Below are positions 31,440 through 33,257 of a stretch of DNA of 64,000 nucleotides, in pieces. Made by a program: the position numbers and the translations under genes. The notes below the pieces were generated by a model. The model was not told the DNA's origin. It worked only from the letters and a program-made list of their open reading frames with translations, and searched no databases. The number at the start of each line of letters is the position of its first letter. Position 1 is the first letter of the stretch. Source of the DNA: Ignavibacteriota bacterium (GTDB lineage: Bacteria > Bacteroidota > Ignavibacteria > UBA10030 > UBA6906); contig CAWDEM010000004.1 of NCBI GenBank assembly GCA_963801355.1, positions 424,811 through 488,810 of the forward strand, written 5' to 3'.

Positions 31440-33257
31440 ACCCGAACTCTCTTTGAGAAACATGTGTCCGAGGAGAGTCGAAAAGCGGCATCGACGCCGT
31501 CTCCAATACCCAGAGCGCGAAATTCGCTACCGTCACCGGCGAGCAAGTCCGCCCAAAAAGTGATCAACTCATTCAGCTGCCGGTTATAGCGTTTGACCGT
31601 GCGTCCTCGAGCGAGGTCAGCAGCAGCTGCCTTGTTGCCATCAGTGATGCCGTCGAAGACAGTGCGTGGCTCGACCAGCAGCCATAGGCGGTCATCGGCC
31701 CAATCCAGACAGATCCCGAGGCCCTCGCGCCATTGCAGCTCGGGATGATCTTTCACCGTCCCGCTAACCACCCCTACCAAGCGCTGTAGCGGCGCCCAGG
31801 CTGCGTCCTTCGGGTCAGTCGGCGCAAGCAGATCGGTCCTGTGCCGACGGATGGCGTCGAAGCCAAACCGACGCATGAGCGCATGGGTCAGCGCTTCGCG
31901 GAGCAGTCCACGCTCACCGGATTCGTAACGTAAGCGATTGGTTTCTATGGTATGGAGGTCGAAGCCAGTTATGTCATATCGGCCAAACGCGCTTCGCACG
32001 TCTGCATCTGAGCCGAAGGCCAGGACGCATGCGTGCGTGCGGGCAACGAGAACGTTCACGCGAGCACGTTCTACCGCCTCCCGCACCTCAGCGAGTCCAC
32101 CTACCTGACAGACCACGCGCCGACACACACTCGGCATCTGAACAACAGGCAGGGCGTTGAGGCGCACCACCGGCCAGCCACGCCCGCCGTCCGAACGCGG
32201 TGCTGCGCTCCAGCGCCGACGCTCCGTAGCGAACGTATCGAGCACCTTAGTATCAATACCCTTTCGCAGGCGCACCAAATCGCGCAGCGCCTCGTCGAAG
32301 TTCTCAACCCCTACCAACGCCGCATCCACTCCCGCCCTGACTGCACGCGTCAGTAGTTGACCAACGCGAGGCAGCAGTGGGTCGTCGCCGCGGTGTAACC
32401 AAAAAAGTCCAGCCGGGTAAGCGCTGTTGTGCTCCAACGCCTCTTCGAGCGCGTTCATGATAGAGTCATCGCGGCCGCTGTAACCGATCACCACAAGCCC
32501 AAATCTACGGCACGACTCGACCAACACCTGCCTCAGGCGAACGTCCTGGTGTCTCAACTCATCACCCGTATTCTTCAACCGCCGCGAGTGAAAGTCACCA
32601 TGTAGCTTTACTTCGATTGGCCAACGTCCCTCGTTGATGAGCTGTAACGCCTGGTCCGGCGCGTCAAGGGCTACGGTCGTCAGGGTCCCCGTGGTTTGAT
32701 ACACTTTGGCGCAAGCATCTGCTACGAGAGAGTCAAAATTCGTCGTCCACACCAGACGCGTGAGTTGCGCGCGCATCAGCGTGGCAAGTGCCAAGTGCCC
32801 GTAGGAAGGCTTCGCCCCGGTCATCTTCGCATCTAAGTAGGCTCGCCGATCTGCTTCGGCCGGATATACCGCCTCGAACAGGGTAGCGTACTCGTCCGGA
32901 GAGCCCGGCGGCGGCAGATTCTCCGAGGAGTCAATGTGGGCCTGCAACTGCGCTCGAACCGCCGGATTAGAAAGATCAGGACACGGTTTGGAGCGAGGCT
33001 CGGCGCTGACTGACGAAAAGCTGCTGTTTGAACTCCCACACCATATCCGAGGCGGTGGGAACACCTGCGGAGGCTGAAGCACCGGCGCCGAGTAGCCACA
33101 TCAGGTTTCCGGCGCGCAGTGAAAAGCGCCGTGCGAAGTCATCGGCGCCGATCTGGTTTGGTGTTGCCTCAGTGTTCATAAGACGGCCACCAACAACACG
33201 AACTGGATTTCCACACGAGTTCGTGGCTAATTGGAAGATCCTAATCTTCGCCGACAT
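31436..33257 (-). CDS. SIR2-APAZ protein (short-pAgo partner, SPARSA-type NADase effector), apparent frameshift near 5' end
   Basis: The main ORF 31436..33082 carries the SIR2 core (SYGHLALATLM...VWTTNFD...VIGYSGRD) and a ~250-aa C-terminal APAZ-like region. The NAD-binding N-terminal motif LMWLLGAGASASAGVPTASDMVWEF is encoded in a different frame (32976..33257). Confidence 0.7.

Follow-up and report, generated by a model that had tools for sequence, protein, structure and literature searches.

We show that the SIR2-APAZ gene of a SPARSA operon is split by a single inserted base near position 32978 of a 64,000-nt stretch of DNA from an Ignavibacteriota bacterium (hereafter the window, meaning the whole of the stretch analysed), and the evidence makes it highly likely that this base is spurious, the product of a sequencing or consensus/assembly error. 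The organism itself most likely has an unbroken gene for a 580-residue protein. Read as it stands, the window would imply that the Argonaute-SIR2 system is dead; the evidence points instead to a system that is probably intact. The gene lies on the minus strand, running from 33179 to 31436, and the parts of the operon that bear on the break are as follows:

31436..33179, minus strand: SIR2-APAZ gene, the effector subunit of SPARSA; 580 codons plus a stop after removal of one base.
32979..33179, minus strand: codons 1-67, in the upstream frame, from the ATG at 33179; first Rossmann strand, loop and helix.
33051..33089, minus strand: NAD cofactor-binding loop GAGASASAGVPTA, residues 31-43, upstream of the break.
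32976..32980, minus strand: frameshift site; the extra base is the T at 32978 or one C of 32979-32980.
31436..32977, minus strand: downstream-frame part, from codon 68 through codon 580 and the stop; remainder of the SIR2 domain, and APAZ domain.
30015..31463, minus strand: short pAgo (MID-PIWI), 482 aa, intact, with a 28-nt overlap with the end of the SIR2-APAZ gene.

The break falls between codon 67 (TCC) and codon 68 (GAT), where the sequence of the minus strand is caa acc gtg tcc TGA tct ttc taa tcc g (letters gtgtccTGATCttt over 32976-32980), and the inserted base produces an immediate TGA at 32978..32976, right behind codon 67. The upstream ORF, 32976..33257 on the minus strand, ends at this stop in ...GNLMWLLGAGASASAGVPTASDMVWEFKQQLFVSQRRASLQTVS (in a second rendering, ...AGNLMWLLGAGASASAGVPTASDMVWEFKQQLFVSQRRASLQTVS), while the remaining SIR2 and APAZ sequence is found in a 548-aa ORF at 31436..33082 of the same strand. 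A frameshift-aware alignment against two orthologous proteins (P0002 and P0004) contains exactly one +1 event, at 32978-32975, with neither in-frame stops nor codon indels anywhere between 33179 and 31439. Across the break site, orthologues read ...FISQRRVSPQTV[A/S/T]DLSNPA(I/V)RAQLQ..., and the gene in the window, once one of the candidate extra bases named above is taken out, reads QTVSDLSNPAVRAQ. The same conclusion is reached with the PADLOC profile PDLC02419 (Aga_SIR2-PNTD1-PNTD2): residues 45-92 of the upstream ORF match profile positions 1-48 (E = 2e-17) and residues 34-546 of the downstream ORF match positions 48-557 of 558 (E = 5e-167), and therefore the two pieces abut exactly and nothing is missing between them. 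In this respect, the first-pass annotation was right that the N-terminus with the Rossmann motif and cofactor loop and the remainder of the protein are in different frames, and right that a single indel is responsible. Its suggestion of a homopolymer indel within 32990-33060 did not hold, as the actual site is 32976-32980 and the longest run there is two (CC, in gtgtccTGATC). The overlap of about 100 nt between the two ORFs, which it had also pointed out, does exist but is uninformative, since the downstream frame merely stays open by chance, out of frame, up to the GTG at 33082; this stretch (VLQPPQVFPPPRIWCGSSNSSFSSVSAEPRSKPCP) shows no homology to SIR2-APAZ family members and no GxG motif. 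Nor is there an alternative start after the shift that could supply a GxG, as had been proposed: the extension of the downstream ORF lacks one, and the TTG at 32947 lies beyond the loop.

Joined as 33179..32979 plus 32977..31436, the corrected coding sequence gives a protein of 580 aa and has no stop other than the terminal one. Its product is 77-81% identical, along its full length, to the closest orthologues, almost all of which are 580 aa long as well. The nearest relatives, at 75-81% identity, are uncharacterised MAG proteins and one protein from Geotalea uraniireducens; the best orthologue stands at 81% protein identity. In the comparison with orthologous SIR2-APAZ genes that had been recommended at the outset, the corrected length is that of the orthologues and the join is seamless. 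Orthologue N-termini of the form MN(A/V)E... align with MNTEATPNQ at 33179. Upstream of the break, the loop GAGASASAGVPTA aligns with residues G25-A37 of GsSir2 (GAGTSRSAGLPTA), where the substitutions A26L and A37F nearly abolish NADase activity (PMC11452484). Downstream of it, where Pfam SIR2_2 matches the long ORF (E = 5e-13), the motifs TTNFD and LHGDF place N147 (32740..32738) and H193 (32602..32600) opposite GsSir2 N142 and H186, whose replacement in N142A and H186A abolishes NADase activity (PMC10781750), and GYSGRD aligns S234/R236 with GsSir2 S227/R229. Since the break separates the cofactor loop, on its upstream side, from the catalytic pair, on its downstream side, a real frameshift would kill the effector.

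The break is present in identical form in the deposited public assembly. Among 5.8 billion proteins, the only one that is 100% identical is a truncated call of 503 aa that starts MQAHIDSS and comes from a contig of 1,657,278 bp; its annotated start is the TTG at 32947, so that residues 68-77 are lost as well. As regards the features by which SPARSA is recognised, the short pAgo adjoins the effector in the same orientation, the SIR2-APAZ fusion is found in the frame-corrected reading only, and the corrected protein contains both the catalytic Asn/His pair and the N-terminal NAD loop. An uninterrupted effector frame is absent from the sequence as deposited, in which residues 1-67 are separated from residues 68-580, and this shortfall probably exists only on paper.

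The corrected gene carries no mark of decay, the term under which the first-pass annotation had considered the break. We aligned the corrected SIR2-APAZ protein with 46 orthologues and counted its private differences at columns invariant in all the others. It has one such change at 148 invariant columns, which is the median for intact homologues (maximum, 5). With no stops and no further indels either, we saw no relaxation of selection in this gene of the kind that would be expected of a pseudogene. For one recent event, this test by itself does not separate a sequencing error from a real mutation; it indicates that the lesion, if real, would have to be very recent.

The distinction between error and mutation comes from the genes on either side of the operon, in which we found at least 11 single-base indels beyond that of SIR2-APAZ: three in a CPBP gene, five in HsdM, at least two in HsdS and one or two in HsdR. 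The neighbours with defined coordinates are:

33645..34580, minus strand: CPBP (Rce1-like) intramembrane protease gene, directly upstream of SIR2-APAZ at a distance of 0.5 kb; three single-base insertions.
28359..29813, minus strand: HsdM (type I methylase), separated from the pAgo gene by 200 nt on its downstream side; five single-base indels.
24632..27113, minus strand: type I restriction subunit HsdR; one certain insertion at 26387-26390 and an uncertain second one near 24760.

In HsdM, four insertions and a single deletion, located near 29647, 29238, 29132, 28952 and 28675, break 1.45 kb into six frame segments. Once stitched together, these give a protein of 484 aa without in-frame stops that is 91% identical, at 100% coverage, to many intact HsdMs of 484 aa, and that has one private change at 262 invariant columns, again the median of its homologues. 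Neutral drift long enough to yield five indels should, if about 5-20 substitutions accompany each indel, leave roughly 10-40 changes at invariant columns, and some stops besides. Therefore, the HsdM indels cannot be real history: five of them coexist with an open, canonical-length frame and a single private change. HsdR, whose Pfam ResIII match is split between two ORFs (positions 4-80 in one and 117-164 in the other), is identical at 684 of 791 residues (86%) to the intact HsdR of an orthologous locus (L030) and has no stops. Thus both HsdM and HsdR, for which close homologues exist, are after frame correction as conserved as intact versions. The CPBP gene, which Pfam Rce1-like matches, aligns over its full length and without stops with a homologue of 286 aa (P0249), given +1 shifts at 34172-75, 34114-17 and 33783-86. 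For HsdS, the frame changes were counted by following the gene from one reading frame to the next; its identity to the HsdS of locus L030 is only 35%, since the target-recognition domains differ.

Taken over about 10 kb (24.6-34.6 kb), the count including SIR2-APAZ is 12-13 single-base events, of which 11-12 are insertions. Like the base at 32978, the neighbouring indels, at least 11, lie outside runs of three or more. The split in SIR2-APAZ is most likely an artefact because its neighbours hold a dozen similar extra bases and yet look undamaged. The first-pass annotation had left the matter between an inactivated effector and an assembly error; these are indeed the two real alternatives, and the number of neighbouring indels, together with the conservation of the genes that contain them, favours error. 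The direction of the changes also argues against natural decay, since natural mutation in bacteria is biased towards deletions. This deletional bias was reportedly described by Mira, Ochman and Moran in 2001 and by Kuo and Ochman in 2009. As a separate observation, noticed post hoc, GATC occurs near some of the indels, within 6 nt of four of the eight that were mapped and within 3 nt of three. GATC (Dam-type methylation) is not sufficient as a cause, as there are 118 GATC sites in the clean stretch from 1 to 17.9 kb.

The damage does not extend to the chromosomal genes at the start of the window. Housekeeping genes between 1 and 16.4 kb are tightly packed and show no frameshifts, with full-length NCBIfam matches to SerS (1-418 of 418), EttA (2-552 of 552), TruA, FBPase (fructose-1,6-bisphosphatase) and two ABC exporters. 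They are followed by an island linked to a tRNA-Pro gene, which contains a primase/helicase, the type I restriction-modification system, SPARSA and the CPBP gene, and beyond whose genes further breaks are seen:

17911-17986: tRNA-Pro, at the island edge.
18049..19071: integrase, following tRNA-Pro and marking the start of the mobile island.
42050..42691 and 42432..42878: broken DUF932 gene, split between these two ORFs, beyond the island genes.
46.3-48.3 kb: broken BNR-repeat paralogue, spread over three frames.

Plasmid homologues of the DUF932 protein are only about 35% identical to it, too distant to place its indel. Since the adjacent housekeeping genes are all full length, the problem is local to the island, and the indels are confined to mobile, probably strain-variable DNA next to clean chromosomal genes. 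This confinement may be explained by lower or mixed coverage, strain mixture and failed polishing, which would make the consensus of a metagenome assembly poorest in such mobile DNA. The spurious base near 32978 would then have arisen where a metagenome assembly with long contigs was poorly resolved.

A genome scan for SIR2-APAZ orthologues returned 29 loci, none of the same lineage as the window, and we compared the 25 full-length ones, all from species-representative genomes. Of eight orthologues whose MAG contigs are Mb-scale or bear 'contig_' names, three (L022, L023 and L026) have a single frameshift, each at a different site, whereas the 17 in NODE_/k141/scaffold-type assemblies have none (Fisher p ~0.02; assembly type was judged from contig size and naming only). 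The contig that contains the window measures 1.66 Mb, and Mb-scale MAG contigs are presumably long-read assemblies. No shift at the site seen in the window occurs in the 46 close orthologues or in the 22 full-length genomic loci that are unbroken, all of which read through at 576-581 aa. The family does have genuine remnants, namely an N-terminal stub of 151 aa beside a transposase (L028) and another short remnant (L027).

Several observations nevertheless speak against an artefact. The deposited assembly has the frameshift and its annotation gives the truncated protein of 503 aa; the indels fall outside long homopolymers, the classic context of nanopore errors; and SIR2-APAZ and pAgo together (3.2 kb) have only one indel where about 3.8 would be expected at the density of their neighbours (Poisson P(<=1) ~0.1). 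It is in principle conceivable that a genuine, very recent single-base insertion inactivated the SIR2 NADase, leaving a pseudogene and an orphaned pAgo, with the N-terminal 67 residues made as a separate peptide and the remainder either untranslated or produced without its NAD-binding loop. Cell-killing defence systems are often lost, the two family remnants are real, and a break here would inactivate the enzyme, the N-terminal loop being essential, as A26L and A37F kill GsSir2. We nonetheless regard a genuine insertion as unlikely: being the sole lesion in a gene whose constraint has not relaxed, it could only have happened extremely recently; in type (+1, outside homopolymers) it matches at least 11 neighbouring events that are themselves implausible as real; and the genuine remnants elsewhere are truncations beside mobile elements, not lone single-base shifts. 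A broader form of this idea, in which the extra base is real and the SPARSA NADase was very recently switched off in the natural population, for example as an escape from self-toxicity, would call for an island-wide mutational process that is biased towards insertions, independent of homopolymers, directed at defence genes and silent in the chromosome, and we consider it quite improbable.

The effector might also be expressed from the interrupted gene as it stands. A programmed +1 ribosomal frameshift at UCC-UGA would yield the full-length protein at a regulated level, and the shift required is indeed +1 and coincides exactly with an in-frame UGA (gtg tcc TGA tct), as in prfB, where the ribosome shifts at the in-frame stop of a CUU-UGA-C site. 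However, none of the orthologues or unbroken loci compared above is shifted here and the three broken ones are shifted elsewhere, no Shine-Dalgarno-like stimulator is found just upstream (ctcgctccaaaccgtgtcc), and the tRNA for UCC would be a poor fit for re-pairing with CCU, so that recoding at this site is hardly credible. We give equally little credence to a functional split gene whose products assemble non-covalently, or to a phase-variable on/off switch through slipped-strand mispairing. The break does fall between secondary-structure elements and defence systems are sometimes phase-variable, although neither point is specific to this gene; against them, the site offers only CC and no repeat tract, beyond the TGA the downstream frame has neither a start codon nor a ribosome-binding site that could be used (the first candidate, taken by the public annotation, is the TTG at 32947), and no orthologue is split at this position.

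A spurious base in this gene has consequences beyond the locus itself. The public annotation already presents the effector as a protein of 503 aa without the NAD-binding loop, and in its neighbourhood a complete type I restriction-modification operon and the CPBP protease gene are disrupted by the same artefact. This part of the assembly would contain about one spurious inserted base per kb. Surveys of functional versus degraded defence systems in MAGs with long contigs would misclassify all of these genes. Were the frameshift real, it would amount to the routine pseudogenisation of a known defence system.

The reading as a sequencing or assembly error is consistent in part with what has been described elsewhere. 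Long-read assemblies are known to have indel errors that fragment genes (PMC12007338, PMC8442456). The window shares with this pattern isolated single-base indels that split conserved genes and cluster in part of a very long MAG contig, as well as orthologues on other Mb-scale MAG contigs that are split at unrelated positions (PMC12007338). Unlike typical long-read indel errors, those in the window are mostly insertions, lie outside long homopolymers and are confined to the island.

Judged from its sequence, the locus is an ordinary two-gene SPARSA operon of clade S1B, with SIR2-APAZ followed by short pAgo, and its closest known counterpart is GsSir2/Ago of Geobacter sulfurreducens, a member of clade S1B with solved structures (PDB 8IN8, 8JL0, 8JKZ, 8K87) in which SIR2-APAZ likewise stands upstream of the short pAgo. 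Residues 13-567 of the SIR2-APAZ protein align with residues 7-568 of GsSir2-APAZ (8JL0, 8IN8, 8JKZ; E = 4e-72), and the cofactor loop and the equivalents of N142/H186 and S227/R229 are all kept, while the overall match to the solved chain is no more than moderate, at 247 bits across 555 aligned residues. The pAgo ORF, which Pfam Piwi matches, is covered by PADLOC pAgo_I over profile positions 2-457 of 457 (E = 7e-198), and its residues 11-482 align end to end with residues 6-473 of the Argonaute chain of GsSir2/Ago (8in8_C, E = 6e-111). GsAgo is reported to be without the DEDX catalytic tetrad in its PIWI domain (PMC11452484), and the pAgo of the window, from its close homology to GsAgo, is probably of the same catalytically inactive type. 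A further difference from GsSir2/Ago is the 1-nt insertion after codon 67 in the SIR2-APAZ gene as deposited.

By analogy with GsSir2/Ago, the SIR2-APAZ and pAgo proteins would form a heterodimer that takes up small 5'-phosphorylated guide RNAs, and pairing of the guide with complementary invader ssDNA would lead to tetramerisation. In the tetramer, the Asn/His pair of SIR2 and the N-terminal cofactor loop would be brought into alignment, and the resulting hydrolysis of NAD+ would be expected to cause arrest or death of the infected or plasmid-bearing cell. SPARTA (TIR-APAZ/short pAgo) follows a common logic, in that guide RNA and target DNA trigger a short pAgo together with an APAZ-fused NADase. 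The pAgo of the window matches SPARTA Argonaute chains weakly (8fex_B, E = 3e-20), and whereas the SPARTA effector is a TIR domain, that of the window is SIR2, as recognised by both Pfam SIR2_2 and PADLOC Aga_SIR2.

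Indels of a single base recur in genes that flank the SIR2-APAZ gene and the intact short Argonaute gene (pAgo) that partners it. Neighbouring genes on the two sides are as follows.

24632-29813, minus strand: type I restriction-modification operon, complete with hsdM, hsdS and hsdR, directly downstream of pAgo
33645-34580, minus strand: CPBP/Rce1-like intramembrane protease gene, adjoining SIR2-APAZ on its upstream side
36425-37671, minus strand: tandem pair of SnoaL-like genes (polyketide cyclase fold), each with a Pfam match over the full length

The restriction-modification operon contains 8-9 single-base indels in total, and apart from these HsdM and HsdR retain 91% and 86% identity, respectively, to intact homologues, with no stops in either. 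The indels across this operon look like assembly noise rather than decay. The protease gene has three +1 single-base insertions and aligns over its full length to its best homologue, the 286-aa P0249. The SnoaL-like pair lies upstream of the defence cluster; at locus L030 from another genome, a SnoaL gene is likewise close to the HsdM homologue.

Of the eight mapped indels, four are no more than 6 nt away from a GATC, a post hoc observation to be set against a chance expectation of ~8%.

32974-32978: indel context tccTGATC
29129-29132: indel context aagAGATC
28951-28958: indel context GATCcTtg
26387-26396: indel context GATCgcaGccg

This proximity may reflect a basecalling effect linked to a methylation motif. 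None of the 118 GATC sites within the clean 1-17.9 kb part of the window is affected.

Frame breaks or overlaps were also found elsewhere in the window, which holds the following tRNA and integrase genes and interrupted or overlapping reading frames.

17911-17986, plus strand: tRNA-Pro
18049..19071, minus strand: tyrosine integrase, after tRNA-Pro
19768..20865, minus strand: AAA_25/DnaB-like helicase ORF
20751..21893, minus strand: AEP-TOTE-type primase ORF
42050-42878, plus strand: DUF932 gene in two frames (Pfam profile positions 1-166 in the first ORF, 143-216 in the next)
46288-48330, minus strand: BNR/Sortilin-repeat protein whose C-terminus is a T9SS sorting domain; ORF 49043..51151 (702 aa, intact) is its paralogue
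52127..53170, plus strand: second integrase, with Mu Gam-like, AAA_24 and AAA_25 genes past it

The tRNA-Pro and tyrosine integrase (17911-19071) mark the left boundary of the genomic island in which the defence genes lie. The primase and helicase ORFs share 115 nt, read in different frames; this could be one more gene broken by a frameshift, here a primase-helicase fusion, or two genes that overlap. The DUF932 homologues found are only ~35% identical. Coding in the BNR/Sortilin-repeat gene is spread across all three minus-strand frames, and the gene therefore has several frame breaks; a further T9SS sorting domain is encoded at 12163..13446. The presence of these two domains is a hint that the source organism belongs to the Bacteroidota/FCB group.

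On three other Mb-scale MAG contigs, SIR2-APAZ orthologues carry one frameshift each (L022, 6481-6484; L023, 7570-7574; L026, 6886-6889), with no in-frame stops in any of the three. The positions all differ, and one falls inside a AGAGAGAGA repeat. At L025, L027 (around 6001-6264), L028 (5890-8947) and L029, the match is limited to the N-terminal 75-290 residues of SIR2-APAZ. The L028 gene is a genuine truncated SIR2-APAZ remnant: a stub of 151 aa with an IS-type transposase after it.
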